Below, in pieces: positions 12,714 to 20,624 of a DNA stretch of 64,000 bases. Origin of the DNA: Infirmifilum sp. (GTDB taxonomy: Archaea > Thermoproteota > Thermoprotei > Thermofilales > Thermofilaceae). The position numbers and the translations under genes were made by a program. How positions within the stretch are numbered: the first letter of the stretch is position 1; the number at the start of each line of letters is the position of its first letter. The DNA lies in the NCBI GenBank assembly GCA_041287245.1, contig JBEULP010000117.1:256001-320000 (forward strand), written 5' to 3'. The notes beneath the pieces were generated by a model that was given only the letters and a program-made list of their open reading frames with translations, did no database searches and was not told the origin of the DNA.

Positions 12714-14048
12714 GTGCCTGAATTCTCGGATTTGCTCTTAGAAGAAGTAAAAAATAAAAAAAGCGAAATTGAGCGGGTTCTCGCCGGTGGGGATTCAATC
12801 TTCAAGGAGTATGCAGAGCTTGTGAGTAAGAAGTGGAACCCGCTTCCAGCGCCAACCGTTGTACCCCGAAACATTTATGCTGTTGATAGTAGTAGCGGGG
12901 TAATCGAGCTTCGAGCAGGAGGCGTTCTCCTTGTTCTACGGAGTCTCGCTTTCTCAACACCACTGTCAACGCATAGAAAGCTTGGTGTTGAAGCTTTCTA
13001 TCCTCACAGCATACGCGACTTTGAAGAATACGTGAGGTTGGCTCGGGAGCACTACGAGCACAATGTCGCTTTAGACGCTTTAAACGAAAACCCTTCTTTT
13101 ATATTGCTTGACGGCTCCCTTTACGGAAGAATGATACATGTTCTGCGGGAGCTTGACCTTGAGGAGAGGGAGGATTTCCTCTTTGAGTACGTAAAAACTT
13201 ACAGTCAGTTTCTCAGGAAAGCCCTTGAGAATAAAGTGACAGTAATCGGGGTCAGCAAGGATTCAAGATCCACAATTTTCAAGGAGGAGTTACTGAAGGA
13301 GCAAGTGTTGCAGGAAGCCAGTAGGTTTGGGGCAGATACATCTGAATTGGCCGGGTTGTGGGGGAGTTTACGCCGGCGACCACGTGAGACAATAGAGAGT
13401 GTTAGACAAAAAGTACGGTCCGGCGAGCTCCCGGAAAGGATCTTAGAGTATTTTCTCCAGGCTAGGTCTCACATTCCTGATTCTAAAATCATCCTTCTTT
13501 CCGGGGTGGAGGAGGGATTCTCGACTCCTATCTTGTTGACTCTCTCTAAGATAATTGCTGGGCAATTTGACTTGGTGCTCAGTGAGGATGCTACCATGCA
13601 GATCCATAAATTGTCGAAGGTTTTTTCCAAAAGCTATGATGCTGACCCTGAGGAGTTTGAGGCGAGGGCTAGGGAGCTTATAGGGAACCTGAGAAGCTAT
13701 CCCCCGGTCGCGGTCTTCTATACTCTCTTGGGGCCGAATGATGACCCTATCAGAGTAGATGTCGTGAGCCATGAGCTTCAAGAGTTTTTGTTTTTAAAGG
13801 ATAGGCCGAGCCTTGAGTCTTTGCTTTTCATGCCCTCCATCATGGAAAAGGAAATGATCCCAATGACACTTTCTTTACTTCAAAGTCTCTATGCTGGGTA
13901 TAGAGGGTATAACGTGTTACTGCTCGAGGCGGATCGTAGGGTTAAAATCACTGTAGATACTTTGGAAACTTATAGGAAAATCATTATGAGGGAGCTTGAA
14001 CTTTTAGTTTTACATTCGAGGGGTGAGAGGCGTGTCCACTATCCTTAA
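12714..14048 (+). CDS. nurA: NurA-family 5'-3' nuclease
   Basis: YAVDSS, LLDGSL, GVSKDSRS, GYNVLLLEAD motifs; context. Confidence 0.88.
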   Translation: MPEFSDLLLEEVKNKKSEIERVLAGGDSIFKEYAELVSKKWNPLPAPTVVPRNIYAVDSSSGVIELRAGGVLLVLRSLAFSTPLSTHRKLGVEAFYPHSIRDFEEYVRLAREHYEHNVALDALNENPSFILLDGSLYGRMIHVLRELDLEEREDFLFEYVKTYSQFLRKALENKVTVIGVSKDSRSTIFKEELLKEQVLQEASRFGADTSELAGLWGSLRRRPRETIESVRQKVRSGELPERILEYFLQARSHIPDSKIILLSGVEEGFSTPILLTLSKIIAGQFDLVLSEDATMQIHKLSKVFSKSYDADPEEFEARARELIGNLRSYPPVAVFYTLLGPNDDPIRVDVVSHELQEFLFLKDRPSLESLLFMPSIMEKEMIPMTLSLLQSLYAGYRGYNVLLLEADRRVKITVDTLETYRKIIMRELELLVLHSRGERRVHYP

Positions 14049-15642
14049 ACCGATAGGTAGGATAGTCGAGAAGGCGACTCCGGAAAGTTTTGTCTTCGTG
14101 ACCAGCCGCGATGAACATCCTCAAAAATTCGAGTATGTGGTGGTTAAATCGAAAGAGTATGTAAACGGTGTTCTGCGGGAGGTTGATGTACTAGCCCAGG
14201 TCGTAGGTGTTGTTTCATCAAGTTCTGCCTTTAGCTCCGAATATGATTACGGCACGTTGGAGAGGGTTTATAGGGCTGGAATAGATGACTCGAACATTCT
14301 CTGCGAAGCTAGAACTCTCGGCTACCTCTTAGAGGAGAACGGGCGAATCACGGTTCTTTCACCACGTAGGGCACTTTTCCCGGGAAACACTGTTTACCTA
14401 GCCCCAGACCAGCTAGTTAGGGATTTTTTCTCTTATAACCCTGACGAAGGAATCCACATAGGCTTTTTGGTCTCAAGGCCTAATGTCCCTGTTTTCCTCA
14501 CGGTAAACGGCTTTAGAAGGCACGTGGCTGTGATTGCTCAGACAGGAGCTGGAAAATCTTACACCGTGGGTGTCATACTTGAAGAGCTTCTGCGCCTCGG
14601 AGGCACGGTTATTGTAATAGACCCTCACGCAGACTATGTTTTTCTCAGTAGGACGCGTGATATGAGAAGACATGATTTCTCCGACAGGATCCTTGTCTTT
14701 CGAAATCCAAATAGTACGGGGCGTTATTCGAGAGAACAGCTTGATAATGTCCACGAGCTTGTCTTCAGATTTTCAGAGCTTAGGGGCGATGATATTGCAA
14801 GAATAGCAGGGATTCCCGAAAAGTGGACAAACGTTAGGGGAGTCATTATTAAAGCTGTTAAGAATCTCCGAGCTAAGAATCCTGATTATAGGGCTTACGA
14901 CCTGATAAAAGAACTGGAAAACATGGCGGAAAGTGGCGAGAAGAAGTATCGTTTAGCGGCGCAGAGCGCAGTTAACCATCTGCGAAGAATCCTGAACTAC
15001 AGTGTATTCGGGGATAGGACAACTCCACTTAAAGATGAAATACTGAAACCTGGATATGTGTCAATCCTTGACCTTTCAGGGTTAAATGACTCGAGCCAAG
15101 ACTACATAGTTAGCAGGGTTCTCGAGGAGCTGTTCTCACTGAAATACGGGATGGAGTTCCCATACCCGGTCTTCGTGGTTATAGAGGAGGCTCACAGGTT
15201 TATCCCAAGCCAGAAACTTAGAAGGAGGACGATGTCCTCAGACATAATAAAGACAATCACAGCAGAGGGGAGAAAGTTTGGCGTTTTCTTGATACTGGTA
15301 ACTCAGAGGCCCAGTAAGATTGATTCTGACGCGTTAAGCCAGTGTAATAGCCAGATAATTTTACGTGTAACTAATCCCTTGGATCAAATAGCCGTTCAGG
15401 AGGCAAGCGAGAGGCTAGGTAAGGAGATGATGAGTGATCTCCCGGGTCTAAACGTGGGAGAGGCTGTAATAGTCGGTGAGCTTACACGCGTTCCAGTGAT
15501 CGTAAAGGTGCGCGAAAGGAGAACACGGGAAGGGGGTGCTGACATAGACCTTGTAGAAGAGTTACGGAAGACGCGTGAGGAGTTTATGCTTTCAGCATCG
15601 AAGACCCCGCCACCCTCTAAGGGCGTGTTTTCAGAGGTGTAG
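14023..15642 (+). CDS. herA: HerA DNA translocase/ATPase
   Basis: N-terminal HAS-barrel-like region, AQTGAGKS, VVIEEAH, EGRKFG, TQRPS; start may be GTG 14032. Confidence 0.92.
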   Translation: MRGVSTILKPIGRIVEKATPESFVFVTSRDEHPQKFEYVVVKSKEYVNGVLREVDVLAQVVGVVSSSSAFSSEYDYGTLERVYRAGIDDSNILCEARTLGYLLEENGRITVLSPRRALFPGNTVYLAPDQLVRDFFSYNPDEGIHIGFLVSRPNVPVFLTVNGFRRHVAVIAQTGAGKSYTVGVILEELLRLGGTVIVIDPHADYVFLSRTRDMRRHDFSDRILVFRNPNSTGRYSREQLDNVHELVFRFSELRGDDIARIAGIPEKWTNVRGVIIKAVKNLRAKNPDYRAYDLIKELENMAESGEKKYRLAAQSAVNHLRRILNYSVFGDRTTPLKDEILKPGYVSILDLSGLNDSSQDYIVSRVLEELFSLKYGMEFPYPVFVVIEEAHRFIPSQKLRRRTMSSDIIKTITAEGRKFGVFLILVTQRPSKIDSDALSQCNSQIILRVTNPLDQIAVQEASERLGKEMMSDLPGLNVGEAVIVGELTRVPVIVKVRERRTREGGADIDLVEELRKTREEFMLSASKTPPPSKGVFSEV

Positions 15643-15648
15643 AAACTG

Positions 15649-16815
15649 ATGGTTTTGAAAATAGTCCACACGGCTGATAATCACCTGGATCCAAAGCTCG
15701 GTTATCTGGGTTCAAAGGTTCAGGAGAGGAGGCAGGACTTCTACAAGTCGTTTCTTAGAGTTGTTGAGTATGTACTGGAGGTTAAACCTGATATTCTTCT
15801 AATCTCGGGGGATTTGTTTGACTCGATAAACCCGAGAAACCCAGTAAGGACGAATGTCCTGAAAGCCTTTCGGAGGATCTCCTCCGAAGGAGTTAGGATC
15901 TTCTTAATAGGAGGTAATCATGACATGCCGCGTTCTCAGGAGGAAGGCATGTCACCCCTCGGTGAGGTAGAGGCATCGGGTTACGCAACTTTTCTCTCAG
16001 ACCCGGCTGTCTTCCAGGTGGAGCACTTGAAGTTAGAGGGGTTTGATGTGGCGGTAGCAGGGCTCTCCTTTGACCCCACACTTGATACAAACGTAAACCC
16101 CCTGCGCGCTCGGAACCTCAGGATACCTATTGAGGGAGATATTAACATTGCGATGCTCCACTACAATTTTGCTGGATTTAGAATACCTCCCAGCTGGGCT
16201 GCGCCAACAATTACGCCTGAAGATATTCCCCCGGGGCTTCATTACCTGGCTTTGGGTCACCTGCACCAGTTCACGCACACTACCGTGAAGGGTGCTCACG
16301 TTGTATATCCCGGCAGTACTGAGCGTAGAAGCTTTAACGAGGAGAGCGACGAGAAGAAAGGCTTCGTCCACGCTGAAATCGACGGCTCGGGGGTCGTTCA
16401 TCTTAAGTTTATTGAGACTCCAACCCGCCCCATGAAAAGCTTCGAGCTGAGTTTGGATGATAAGATAGAAGACCCGATAGCCCATGTTGTGAGTTCAATT
16501 CCTTTTATAGACCCTAAAGCTCAAGTCAGAGTAAAGCTTAGGGGCTCCCTACCTCTTGAAAAGATCCGTCTATATAGTAAGGCTGAACTTGTAAAGAGGC
16601 TGGAAAATCGATTTTTCCACGTTACCATAGATGATTCGGAACTAAAATGTATCCTCCGGGAAGTTAGGATCTCAGGCGAAATAAGCTCCCCCCTGGACTC
16701 CTATAGGTCTTATTTCGAGGAAGCTCTTAAGAACGCCGTGGGAGAGGAAGCAGAAACCCTAAGGCTAGCGTTAGAGCTCGGAATGGCTGTCTTGCAGGAG
16801 GTGGGGGCATGGTAG
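15649..16815 (+). CDS. mre11: Mre11/SbcD-family nuclease
   Basis: HTADNHL, GDLFD, GNHD, LGHLH, YPGSTER. Confidence 0.93.
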   Translation: MVLKIVHTADNHLDPKLGYLGSKVQERRQDFYKSFLRVVEYVLEVKPDILLISGDLFDSINPRNPVRTNVLKAFRRISSEGVRIFLIGGNHDMPRSQEEGMSPLGEVEASGYATFLSDPAVFQVEHLKLEGFDVAVAGLSFDPTLDTNVNPLRARNLRIPIEGDINIAMLHYNFAGFRIPPSWAAPTITPEDIPPGLHYLALGHLHQFTHTTVKGAHVVYPGSTERRSFNEESDEKKGFVHAEIDGSGVVHLKFIETPTRPMKSFELSLDDKIEDPIAHVVSSIPFIDPKAQVRVKLRGSLPLEKIRLYSKAELVKRLENRFFHVTIDDSELKCILREVRISGEISSPLDSYRSYFEEALKNAVGEEAETLRLALELGMAVLQEVGAW

Positions 16816-19337
16816 TCATAAGAAGCCTTAAGGCGATAAACTTCAGGAGGCTAAACATCCCCGAGCCTCTCAACCTAGATAAGGGTATTTTCATTATCAG
16901 GGGTAGGAACGAGGCGGGAAAATCAACCTTTATAGAAGCAATCCTTTTCGGGCTCTACGGGGATCATCAAGTAATAGGGGATCTGCGAGGAAACCCCAGG
17001 CGAGGTTATGCTGAGGTCGTCAACCACAGGTCCCGTAAAGCCCTAGTGGAGGTTGAGTTCGAGGTAGACAATAGGAGGTACCGCGTGGCTCGAGAGCTGA
17101 TCAGGGATGGAGACTCGATAAAACAGGTTAATGCGAGGCTTGTTGAAATAACCGAGGGTTCTGAGAGGTTACTAGCAACAGGTGTCAAGCCTGTTAACGA
17201 CGAGGTGCATCGTATACTTAAGGTTTCATGGAAGGAGATGCTTACCACTAACATTGTTGCCCAAAAGGATCTGGAGCGCATTATTCATCTGAATAAGGGA
17301 GATAGGGAACAGATAATTAATCTCATGATGGGTCTAGAGAGCTACAACAGGGCTATTTCTAGCCTCGAAGATAGGAGAAGAGAGGCGAATAGAAAGAAGG
17401 AAGGACTGGCCGAGTTGTATGAAGAAAAAAGGAAAAGGGTAGAAGAGTTGAAACTTAAATTGGATGAACTCCCTGGATTACGTAGTGAACTTCAAAAGAT
17501 CGAGGAACAGCTTCCCGGACTCAGGGTTCGAGAGGAGCTTCTTAAGAAGGCCCTAGACTATCTCACAGCCCTCAGACAAGTGTTATTGAAGAAGAAAGAG
17601 TTGGAGCACCAGGAAGCCTCTCTCGAGGATCGTATTGTAGAAAAACAGGGTCAGCTCTCAGAGACTCAAAAACGCATTAATACGAACCTGAAGAGCTTAA
17701 GGGATATCGAATTGCTTTTGCCTCAGCTACTTGATAAAGATGGACATCTTAGGCAAGAATTACAGAAACTACGAGAGGAATATGACGCTAGAAGCCGACT
17801 TTTCAGCGATATTCAATCCTATAATGAGTATCGCACTAAGGAGTTGAAGAGGATTGAAGAGCTAGACCGTGAAATAAGGACAATAGAAGAGGAAGTCAGA
17901 CATCTGGAACAAAGCAAGGAGGAGATTACTCTACTCGAGAAAGAGAAATCAGCGCTTAAACAAGAGATTTCTACGCTGAAAATACCTTCATGGTCGAAGC
18001 TCGGCTTTCCTGCCCTTGGCGCCGGCGTTCTTGCCCTCCTTCTCATGCCTCAGACGGTCATTGTACCTATTGGCTTTCTTCTTGTAGGAGGGCTTCTCCT
18101 TTACCTTGGCTATAGAAAGAAAATAATGACGCAACAGGCGCTTCTAGCGAGAGCCAGCGCTGTCGAGGTTGAAATAAGCTCTAAGGCTGCTCTTGTCTCC
18201 AGATTAGACCGAGAAAAGAAAAGACTGGAGGATCTTGTAGCAGAAAAGGCAGAGCTTGAGAAGCACGTTAAGGATATCGAGGATAAAATAAGAGGGCTAG
18301 GTGGAAGAGAGTCTACGCTTCCCATAGAAGAAGCCCTTAATCTCTTAAAAAGGGAGTTAGAAAGGCAAAGGGAACAGATTGAGAGACTGGAAGGTGAAGA
18401 AAAAACGGTTCAGGCTAATATAGAGGTTTATTTAAAGGAGCAGAAAAGGCTCAAGGAGGAAACTGAGCAGTTACAGAAGAAGCTCTTGGAGATACAGCAA
18501 CAACTAAAGGAGCTGGAGGAGCGAAAAAGAAAGGTGGTCAGCGAGCTAAACGAGATTAAGATCCCCCCGCCGCCCTCCGAATTAAAGGCGAATGTTGAGT
18601 ATGTTGAGATTGCGTCAGAAGAGCAGGATTCCGAGTTGGTTGACCAGATATACGAGAAGCTTAACTGGGAGTACCATGATATTTCAGTTAAAAGAGCGGG
18701 ACTAGAGAAGGAAATAGGAAACCTCAGGAAGCGTATCGAGGAGACTGAGCTGCTTAGGCCCCAGCTAGAGCAGCTGCAAGGCGAGCTTGAAAAACTCGGT
18801 GGGGAATTGGCGGGATTAGAGAAGGAGTTAAAGGCTATAGATAAAGCCATCCGGGCTATGCAGGAGATCTCCCGTAAGAGACGCGAAGCCTTTGCGCCCA
18901 GTGTTGAGCAATATATAAGCTGGGTGATAGGCTATTTCACCAATGGTAGATACAAGGCAGTTAGGCTGCAACCTGACACGTATGACCTCGAGGTGTATGA
19001 TTCGGAAGCAGGTAGATGGCTCGTAAGAGATATATATTCCGGGGGGACTAATGATCAATTCCTCTTAGCCCTGAGAATCGCATTTACCTTGGCGCTCTTA
19101 CCTAGTGCGAAGGGCTCATATCCGAAGTTTCTCGTCCTGGACGAGCCTTTAGGTTCGTCTGACGCCGAGAGGCGAGAGAGGATAATAAGTTTCTTTACGG
19201 GCGAGCTTGTCAGGTTTTTCGACCAGGTTTTCCTTATAACTCACGTTGAGATAGAGGAGCCTCCCGGCGTTACAATTATTCAAATAGAAGACGGGAAGGT
19301 TGTCGGGGTTCACAGGTCTGTTCCAGAGGAATCATAG
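16809..19337 (+). CDS. rad50: Rad50/SbcC-like SMC ATPase with hydrophobic hairpin in place of zinc hook
   Basis: Walker A GRNEAGKST, signature YSGG, Walker B LVLDEP, ITH; long coiled coils; no Cys; hydrophobic aa ~395-435. Confidence 0.88.
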   Translation: MVVIRSLKAINFRRLNIPEPLNLDKGIFIIRGRNEAGKSTFIEAILFGLYGDHQVIGDLRGNPRRGYAEVVNHRSRKALVEVEFEVDNRRYRVARELIRDGDSIKQVNARLVEITEGSERLLATGVKPVNDEVHRILKVSWKEMLTTNIVAQKDLERIIHLNKGDREQIINLMMGLESYNRAISSLEDRRREANRKKEGLAELYEEKRKRVEELKLKLDELPGLRSELQKIEEQLPGLRVREELLKKALDYLTALRQVLLKKKELEHQEASLEDRIVEKQGQLSETQKRINTNLKSLRDIELLLPQLLDKDGHLRQELQKLREEYDARSRLFSDIQSYNEYRTKELKRIEELDREIRTIEEEVRHLEQSKEEITLLEKEKSALKQEISTLKIPSWSKLGFPALGAGVLALLLMPQTVIVPIGFLLVGGLLLYLGYRKKIMTQQALLARASAVEVEISSKAALVSRLDREKKRLEDLVAEKAELEKHVKDIEDKIRGLGGRESTLPIEEALNLLKRELERQREQIERLEGEEKTVQANIEVYLKEQKRLKEETEQLQKKLLEIQQQLKELEERKRKVVSELNEIKIPPPPSELKANVEYVEIASEEQDSELVDQIYEKLNWEYHDISVKRAGLEKEIGNLRKRIEETELLRPQLEQLQGELEKLGGELAGLEKELKAIDKAIRAMQEISRKRREAFAPSVEQYISWVIGYFTNGRYKAVRLQPDTYDLEVYDSEAGRWLVRDIYSGGTNDQFLLALRIAFTLALLPSAKGSYPKFLVLDEPLGSSDAERRERIISFFTGELVRFFDQVFLITHVEIEEPPGVTIIQIEDGKVVGVHRSVPEES

Positions 19338-19433
19338 GAAGATTTGATGAAGAACATATATGGCGTTATTCTGGAATCCCTTTTTTTCTCTTGGAGTAAA
19401 TTAAATAACATAGAGTATTTTCTCTCTAAATGT

Positions 19434-19883
19434 ATGAAGGTGGGGTTAGGATCTGACGACCTGTACCCCCTAGCGCTGTTTCTAGCTAAAGAGCTCGAGA
19501 AAAGAGGATTCGAAGTAGTTAAGGTCGGGGCTCTGGCAAAAGGCGCTCCATACCCCTGGCCAAGGGTTGGGTTGGAGGTAGGGAAGCTCGTAGCAGACGG
19601 GGTTGTTGATACTGGAATAGTAATCTGTTACACAGGAACCGGGGTGAGCATCGCAGCGAATAAGGTTAGGGGTGTGAGGGCTGCTCTGTGCCTGGACGCG
19701 AAAACAGCGAGGGGGGCTAGGCTTTGGAATGACGCCAATGTACTTGCCCTCAGTGCAAGGCTAGTTTCCGAAGAGCTAGCAAAGGAGATTCTTGATGAGT
19801 GGTTTAATACAAGGGAGATAGATCCCTCGGAGGTGGAGAATATAAACCTTCTCAAGAAAATGGATAGTGAGGGGAGTGTCTAG
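19434..19883 (+). CDS. RpiB/LacA/LacB-family sugar-phosphate isomerase
   Basis: GSDD, CYTGTGVSIAANKVRGVRAA, NDANVL; ATG 19434 about 27 nt after TTAAATA. Confidence 0.9.
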   Translation: MKVGLGSDDLYPLALFLAKELEKRGFEVVKVGALAKGAPYPWPRVGLEVGKLVADGVVDTGIVICYTGTGVSIAANKVRGVRAALCLDAKTARGARLWNDANVLALSARLVSEELAKEILDEWFNTREIDPSEVENINLLKKMDSEGSV

Positions 19884-20624
19884 GTGTTTAGGGGTCTTGT
19901 AAAGGACGAGAGAAGTCTATATGATGAATTCGAGGAGAAAACACCATATTGGGACTATAGAACGGACAACTTCGCCTCGATTACTTTGCGCGACAGCAAG
20001 GCAGTACTCTGCTCCGGCCCCACCGAAGCTCTCTACTACTCTAACGCTGAAATCTCTGACGGGAGATTCGACGACCTCCCGTGGCAGATGAAAACCTTCG
20101 AGGCAAAGGTTAGAATGACGGGGACGCACTTTGGCTCTGCCGGGTGGGGCTTCTGGAACCACTCGATGCAGTTCAATCTAAGCCGGCCTATCTGGTTTAT
20201 ACACCTACAAAGCCGTGGACCATACCTTTTCCAAGGGTTTTTTGCCCAGGCGGTGACGGGTTTTGTTCCCATTAAGATTTACAGGGGTTCACTAACAGCT
20301 CCTAGTTTGCTATCCAGGCTTACACGAGGAGCCATCGGTGTTACAATATATACCCATAAGCCTGTCCTTCAGGAGCTTGATCTGAGTTCCTGGCACGTAT
20401 ACAAGATAGAGTGGCAAGCAGATAGTGCAGCCTTTTACATTGACGGCAACCTCGTTGCAAAAATACCCATCCGCGACTCCAACTTTAAGGCTCGGGCTGA
20501 CGTTTGGATCGATAATGCCGTTTTCGGCTACAACCCTAAGGATGCAGGCCAAGTGTACAGGCACCTTACACAGGAAAACAGGGAAAAGAATTGCCTAGAG
20601 GTAGATTACATAAAGATTTTCTAG
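19884..20624 (+). CDS. GH16/concanavalin-fold-like protein, catalytic motif not evident
   Basis: FEAKVR, GWGFW, WHVYKIEWQADSAAFYIDG, EVDYIKI. Confidence 0.55.
   Translation: MFRGLVKDERSLYDEFEEKTPYWDYRTDNFASITLRDSKAVLCSGPTEALYYSNAEISDGRFDDLPWQMKTFEAKVRMTGTHFGSAGWGFWNHSMQFNLSRPIWFIHLQSRGPYLFQGFFAQAVTGFVPIKIYRGSLTAPSLLSRLTRGAIGVTIYTHKPVLQELDLSSWHVYKIEWQADSAAFYIDGNLVAKIPIRDSNFKARADVWIDNAVFGYNPKDAGQVYRHLTQENREKNCLEVDYIKIF

Follow-up and report, generated by a model that had tools for sequence, protein, structure and literature searches.

Background

What takes the place of the zinc hook when the only Rad50 that a cell encodes has none, and where in such a cell is broken DNA resected? The question is raised by nurA-herA-mre11-rad50, an operon in a stretch of 64,000 nucleotides (nt), hereafter the window, from the archaeon Infirmifilum sp. 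(assembly GCA_041287245.1, contig JBEULP010000117.1, positions 256,001 to 320,000; G000:C29:256001-320000 in our numbering). The hook of Rad50 is called absolutely conserved in a passage of one review (PMC7752040). We consider it probable, with some reserve, that this operon supplies the only Mre11-Rad50 of its cell, together with NurA-HerA, that it likely serves housekeeping resection of DNA double-strand breaks, that its Rad50 is, by prediction, anchored in the membrane by a hairpin replacing the hook, and that the module has spread by displacement.

The four open reading frames (ORFs) lie on the + strand; the first two overlap by 26 nt, the second and third are 6 nt apart, and the last two overlap by 7 nt. 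A first-pass annotation, made by a model from the sequence of the window, had described four co-oriented genes in this order, overlapping or 6 nt apart and with intact motifs; the ORF coordinates and a motif search agree with it. The features, with lengths in amino acids (aa), are:

12714..14048, + strand: nurA, 444 aa, RNase H-fold nuclease; D58, E115 and D133 present, Asp407 replacing the usual motif-III His; Pfam NurA 1.2e-19
14023..15642, + strand: herA, 539 aa, ATPase/translocase with Walker A and Walker B; DUF87/HerA 5e-41, NF040819 1e-66 (below cut-off)
15649..16815, + strand: mre11, 388 aa; Metallophos 2e-11, phosphoesterase motifs intact
16809..19337, + strand: rad50, 842 aa, cysteine-free, with ABC heads and a long coiled coil; signature SGGTNDQ, AAA_23 3e-16
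18000..18113, + strand: Rad50 residues 398-435, uncharged hydrophobic hairpin at the coiled-coil apex, the usual zinc-hook site; predicted membrane anchor

A hydrophobic hairpin at the apex of Rad50

The protein has no cysteine and PF04423 has no match at the locus, so the CxxC zinc hook is absent from the apex. Hydropathy averaged over 19 residues peaks there at 2.27 (residues 400-436), the sole hydrophobic stretch, at mid-length, and residues 398-435 form a run of 38 residues without Asp, Glu, Lys or Arg, placed at 0.49 of the length and flanked by sequence rich in Lys and Arg. Two of 2000 shuffled Rad50 sequences equalled the hydropathy of the hairpin over 37 residues. An AlphaFold model built on a 30-sequence alignment reverses the chain at residues 390-421, with helix 242-389 before the turn and helix 422-463 after it, and its top Foldseek match is Mre11-Rad50-Nbs1 (7zr1).

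Among the 120 Rad50 homologues listed, 114 have a central hydrophobic peak, five have CxxC and none has both; the peak recurs in 145 of the best 150 profile matches, and CxxC in none of the 150. In 112 CxxC-free homologues the uncharged run has a median length of 38 residues and lies at mid-length, compared with runs of 6-13 residues in hook proteins, and each flank holds about three Lys or Arg and fewer than one Asp or Glu per 10 residues. Hydropathy is kept across the hairpin columns (1.91) but identity is not (0.28, no different from the coiled coil), a pattern that a segment in contact with lipid would be expected to show. The hairpin is predicted from these features to insert in the cytoplasmic membrane.

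The hairpins of two arms could instead pair outside the membrane, as a soluble hydrophobic dimerisation module that would serve as a zinc-free clasp in an ordinary repair operon. In yeast and Bacillus subtilis the hook can be exchanged for other dimerisation domains (passages of PMC7752040); the hookless B. subtilis protein SbcE, considered below, forms foci on the nucleoid as well as at the poles (passages of PMC2811018), and the Rad50 apex is poorly resolved in the model, all of which speaks for such a clasp. The charge-free run of 38 residues, the basic flanks and the lack of identity conservation nevertheless fit lipid contact better than a protein interface, and we hold the soluble clasp to be quite unlikely.

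The only Mre11-Rad50 set of its genome

The source assembly is Thermofilaceae-like, 99.99% complete and 5.05% contaminated, and comprises 119 contigs. A hidden Markov model search found one Mre11 in it. The first-pass annotation had raised the prospect of a second, hook-bearing rad50/mre11 set elsewhere in the genome; the genome was searched and has none. The only hook-bearing SMC-like protein found is an 802-aa protein with CPVC at mid-length and the signature LSDGQ, encoded in an arcade cluster (L001:7986-12592, on contig C49) together with a crenactin that scores above cut-off. We rejected this protein as a second Rad50 because its top model is arcadin-4 and it lies beside crenactin with no adjacent Mre11. 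As the sole Mre11-Rad50 set, the operon most likely carries out housekeeping break resection.

The Mre11 query matched 37 of 41 genomes of the order Thermofilales, at one locus each (G018 has a second match, to a fragment of 40 residues where a contig ends). Twenty-one of these genomes are hairpin-type and 14 hook-type, the Rad50 tip lies off the contig in two (G026 and G033), and none has both types: hairpin- and hook-type operons are mutually exclusive across the order. By identity to the query, the Mre11 proteins divide into 21 close (40-66%, own gene excluded) and 16 distant (27-34%, full-length matches). The hairpin is clear in 20 of the close-type genomes and cut by a contig end in the other (G020); 14 of the 16 distant-type genomes have an adjacent CPxC Rad50. 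Each of four single-contig genomes of the genus (G001, G005, G006 and G007) has this Mre11 as its sole one. Of 120 genomes in the class, 21 were found to have the close type, every one of them a member of this order. The gene order nurA-herA-mre11-rad50 is common to both types, and all four genes stand in it in 18 of the 21 hairpin genomes. No match was obtained with this query in four of the 41 genomes (52-95% complete). Named cultured carriers of the hairpin form are Thermofilum pendens, T. adornatum, Infirmifilum uzonense and I. lucidum.

The source genome has three NurA genes, each adjoining a HerA-like gene, and most genomes of the order have two or three. The further pairs (L002:5985-8986 and L003:1620-4257) stand without Mre11 or Rad50, their NurA proteins both carry the His, and the pair on contig C21 lies near a 1037-aa DEAH-type helicase gene.

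Comparison with known systems

The operon shares with the archaeal herA/nurA/mre11/rad50 resection operon of Sulfolobus and Pyrococcus (PMC4351679 and PMC3300031) the same four families, their union in one operon, intact motifs and single copy; in S. islandicus each of the four genes is essential (abstract of PMC4351679). The catalytic motifs of all four proteins are intact. Those located were DNH, GDLFD, GNHD, LH and GHLH in Mre11, Walker A and EEAH in HerA, and a canonical Walker A (GRNEAGKS), Q-loop, SGG, DEP and H-loop in Rad50. The top NCBIfam models are repair models (NurA_Pyro, helicase_HerA, Mre11_Sulfo and Rad50 PRK03918), all matched far below their curated cut-offs; the Rad50 equivalog, for example, scored 130 bits against a cut-off of 700 and was not reached. 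The best named protein relatives come from Infirmifilum (49-52%), followed by Thermofilum (about 40%). Besides these scores, the operon differs from the described one in having a hydrophobic hairpin for the CxxC hook, SGGxxDQ rather than SGGE as the Rad50 signature, a NurA of about 440 aa with Asp for His, and a separate clade for all four genes.

The first-pass annotation had noted the length of NurA and an Asp in place of His, both of which hold, and had placed the end of the protein at GYNVLLLEAD, which does not: the Asp stands at residue 407, and the chain runs on for 37 more residues. Asp407 is aligned with the motif-III His of hook-type NurA. In the NurA tree (61 rows), Asp occupies this position in 43 of 45 hairpin-clade rows and His in 15 of the 16 others, the remaining one being truncated. 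The corresponding His411 of P. furiosus NurA is a ligand of the second metal, and both TtAgo and T. maritima NurA have an acidic residue there (passages of PMC3300031), so the Asp is compatible with activity. Judged from these alignments, the change from His to Asp is a signature of the clade and not a defect. NurA had no significant match among the sequences of solved structures.

SbcE/SbcF (YhaN/YhaO) of B. subtilis, as described in passages of PMC2811018, is the nearest precedent in design. SbcE is an SbcC-like ATPase without CxxC, with a hydrophobic, insoluble, proline-containing central domain, encoded next to an SbcD-like (Mre11-like) nuclease; it has roles in break repair and competence, localises to the uptake machinery at the poles, and is needed for full transformation. 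The central domains are alike by description and may or may not be homologous. SbcE has a deviant Walker A and forms an extra system beside SbcC, whereas the pair considered here has a canonical Walker A, stands alone in its genome and is linked to NurA-HerA. SbcE is not termed a membrane protein in the passages of PMC2811018, and the text of that paper does not contain 'archae'. Our Rad50 matches PF13514 at 18.4 bits (cut-off 22) and over the P-loop only, two records give only weak matches to this family, and a profile of bacterial hairpin-clade members retrieved hook-type Rad50/SbcC, the 120 matches listed including no named YhaN.

Anti-phage systems offer a second comparison. Lamassu LmuB is an SMC-like ATPase, sometimes hookless, and Lamassu systems evolved from SbcCD (passages of PMC12663957). 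The four operon proteins show partial ATPase similarities to PADLOC models (LmuB 2e-40, HerA 2e-52) and one weak Mre11 match. Unlike Lamassu and Sir2-HerA, the operon has no LmuA, LmuC or Sir2 partner, has Mre11 and NurA instead and lacks a defence neighbourhood; its HerA scores better with repair models than with those of HerA anti-phage systems.

Passages of PMC7752040, PMC13748450, PMC11946384, PMC9389158, PMC12663957 and preprint 10.1101/2021.04.30.439615 do not describe a hairpin Rad50; the last, a 3C-seq study of T. adornatum, notes two SMC-like proteins. Full-text literature searches returned no title or abstract opening that describes one.

Defence, uptake and mobile elements

A tether at the membrane could serve mainly DNA that crosses it, with taken-up DNA being recombined or injected viral or plasmid DNA destroyed and chromosome repair secondary. 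The first-pass annotation had offered such a role for a second, paralogous module and had named association with a defence island as a check. The association of hookless SbcE with uptake and transformation, the descent of Lamassu defence from SbcCD and the horizontal movement of the module, considered below, would all suit this idea. Against it, the set is the sole one in its genome and replaces the housekeeping operon, and the genomic checks came back negative. None of the 11 flanking ORFs of the window had a PADLOC match. Among 150 of the 164 flank ORFs of 17 genomes (the 14 left out were mostly shadow-frame-like), 13 were matched, mostly by partial ABC-ATPase similarity, and formed no multi-gene system; by inspection, they are seven ABC-transporter ATPases, two small nucleotidyltransferases and four single others. 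The source genome has no CedB above cut-off, the hairpin was found in none of 45 viral loci, and no plasmid record covered 80% of the query. The plasmid matches from Priestia and Miltoncostaea are hook-type. With a single Mre11 in the genome and both operon types together in none of the 41, the proposal of a second module finds no support here, and a primary role in DNA crossing the membrane seems to us rather improbable. The Priestia megaterium match (L190:143-10836), on a plasmid of 1.08 Mb, is a hook-type nurA-herA-mre11-rad50 in the archaeal gene order with recA nearby.

Relatives and history of the operon

A scan of species genomes returned at least 67 hairpin-family loci, in Bathyarchaeia, Asgard archaea, Nitrososphaerota, Dictyoglomota, Chloroflexota and others. 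A synteny survey of the kind proposed in the first-pass annotation shows the four genes in order at 25 of the 67 loci listed and mre11-rad50 alone at many others. In trees of Mre11 (80 rows), HerA and NurA (61 rows each) and the Rad50 heads (74 rows, hairpin excluded; seven rows without a matched Walker A were skipped), two duplicate loci having been omitted from the trees, the genes of hairpin operons group together, apart from the hook-type genes of the same order, and the neighbours of all four are homologues from Bathyarchaeia, Asgard archaea and some bacteria. The earlier proposal of a lineage-specific, membrane-tethered repair machine is retained as to tethered repair, but not as to its confinement to one lineage. 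With named canonical proteins included, the hook-type Rad50s of the order join those of Sulfolobus and Pyrodictiaceae (support 90-94) and the hairpin clade is separate from them (98), which suggests that the hook-type operon is likely the vertical orthologue in the order.

An RpoB tree built from 40 genomes intermingles the two states (21 hairpin rows, 13 hook rows, five changes) and rejects a single clade of hairpin genomes (p 3e-57). In a four-gene tree (1706 columns, 19 genomes), monophyly is rejected for genus g1 (p 1.6e-5) and likewise for the family (p 5e-5); these groups were taken from taxonomy but chosen after the single-gene trees were known. Genomes G003 and G021 are 93.6% identical in HerA, 52.3% in Rad50 and 65.3% in RpoB, a pattern that points to recent partial transfer or a binning error. 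The first-pass annotation had deemed a specialised role unlikely were this the only, vertically inherited set; it is the only set, but the RpoB and operon-tree tests speak against vertical inheritance. In-place replacement was considered and set aside: the one shared flank between types, a convergent roadblock gene after rad50 that is 64% identical in G001 (hairpin) and G019 (hook), is a hint only, and other cross-type flank matches are mostly paralogues at 24-37% or shadow ORFs of the operon genes. The same biochemistry might have another history, in which the ancestor of the order had both operons and each lineage lost one, but, for all that the operon tree agrees with RpoB and flanks are in common within four close relatives and that the hairpin clade is old and widespread in archaea, the two rejected monophylies, the HerA and RpoB identities of G003 and G021 and the absence of any genome with both operons make this very unlikely.

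Neighbouring genes and variant loci

RpiB/LacAB-family and GH16-like genes follow closely after rad50 (19344-20624 of the window) and recur in three close relatives, and a peroxiredoxin gene lies upstream of nurA in six genomes of the genus. Promoter and terminator scans, made with bacterial patterns on an archaeal host, remained at chance level. In family f5 (G026 and G033), L132:7025-11422 and L134:2754-6916 hold a third, long-branched herA-mre11-rad50 type with a 209-aa gene in the place of nurA. A 123-aa gene, HEPN-like by appearance, stands between nurA and herA in two genomes, of different genera, with downstream genes in common (L106:7694-8065 and L110:332-703). The operon of G018 (L109:1-10240) is broken up, with nurA inverted and separated and other genes between herA and mre11. 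G012, 92% complete in 10 contigs, has no match to the Mre11 or hairpin Rad50 queries used here; its sister has the operon, and an assembly gap may be responsible. At L034, under a record titled Nitrososphaerota, the operon is nested among Thermofilaceae sequences and encodes a shorter Rad50 (708 aa), which may reflect transfer between orders. Within the hairpin clade, three Chloroflexota members (L054, L073 and L077) have neither an above-cut-off hairpin nor CxxC at mid-length.

Model

By analogy with the known families, the Mre11-Rad50 heads would use an ATP-driven cycle to locate a DNA end and trim it, after which a HerA-NurA ring would resect the 5' strand and leave a 3' tail for recombination. 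The hairpin, basic-flanked on both sides, would insert from the cytoplasm with both ends remaining cytoplasmic, so that arms of about 210 residues could place the heads as far as about 30 nm from the membrane. Confinement to the membrane, perhaps with contact between hairpins, would hold the two arms together without zinc. The four genes would move as one module, which likely displaced an ancestral hook-type operon several times in the order. The cells of Thermofilum, being very thin filaments, would hold their DNA close to the membrane; the hairpin clade is not limited to Thermofilum. A bolder version, in which the mobile module does all break resection at the membrane through a lipid-embedded bundle of paired hairpins in place of the zinc hook and meets incoming DNA first, an advantage that would drive the repeated displacement of the essential hook operon in archaea, strikes us as unlikely.

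Several points weigh against this membrane-anchored, displacing housekeeping operon. Insertion of Rad50 in the membrane is a prediction resting on hydropathy; 38 residues are short for two full spans, a shallow re-entrant hairpin being possible; and confidence in the model is low at the apex, with a predicted local distance difference test (pLDDT) score of 44-57 over residues 391-430. The hairpin falls below cut-off in three of 60 hairpin-clade members and so is not always required. The genome has two further NurA-HerA pairs, and the service of the operon pair to Mre11-Rad50 is inferred from gene order. Four of 41 genomes lacked an Mre11 match and many are fragmented, so co-occurrence of the types could be missed; apparent transfers between metagenome bins may in part be binning errors; and the trees, which have long branches, come from quick or FastTree runs.

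Conclusions

The only Rad50 of this cell is without a zinc hook, contrary to the absolute conservation stated in the review cited at the outset. Hook and hairpin operons alternate between sister genera, providing a natural swap experiment on the purpose of the hook, and the occurrence of the hairpin form in named cultured species lays it open to testing. Should the anchor prove real, these archaea would organise break repair at the membrane, and the same clade is found in Asgard archaea and Bathyarchaeia.

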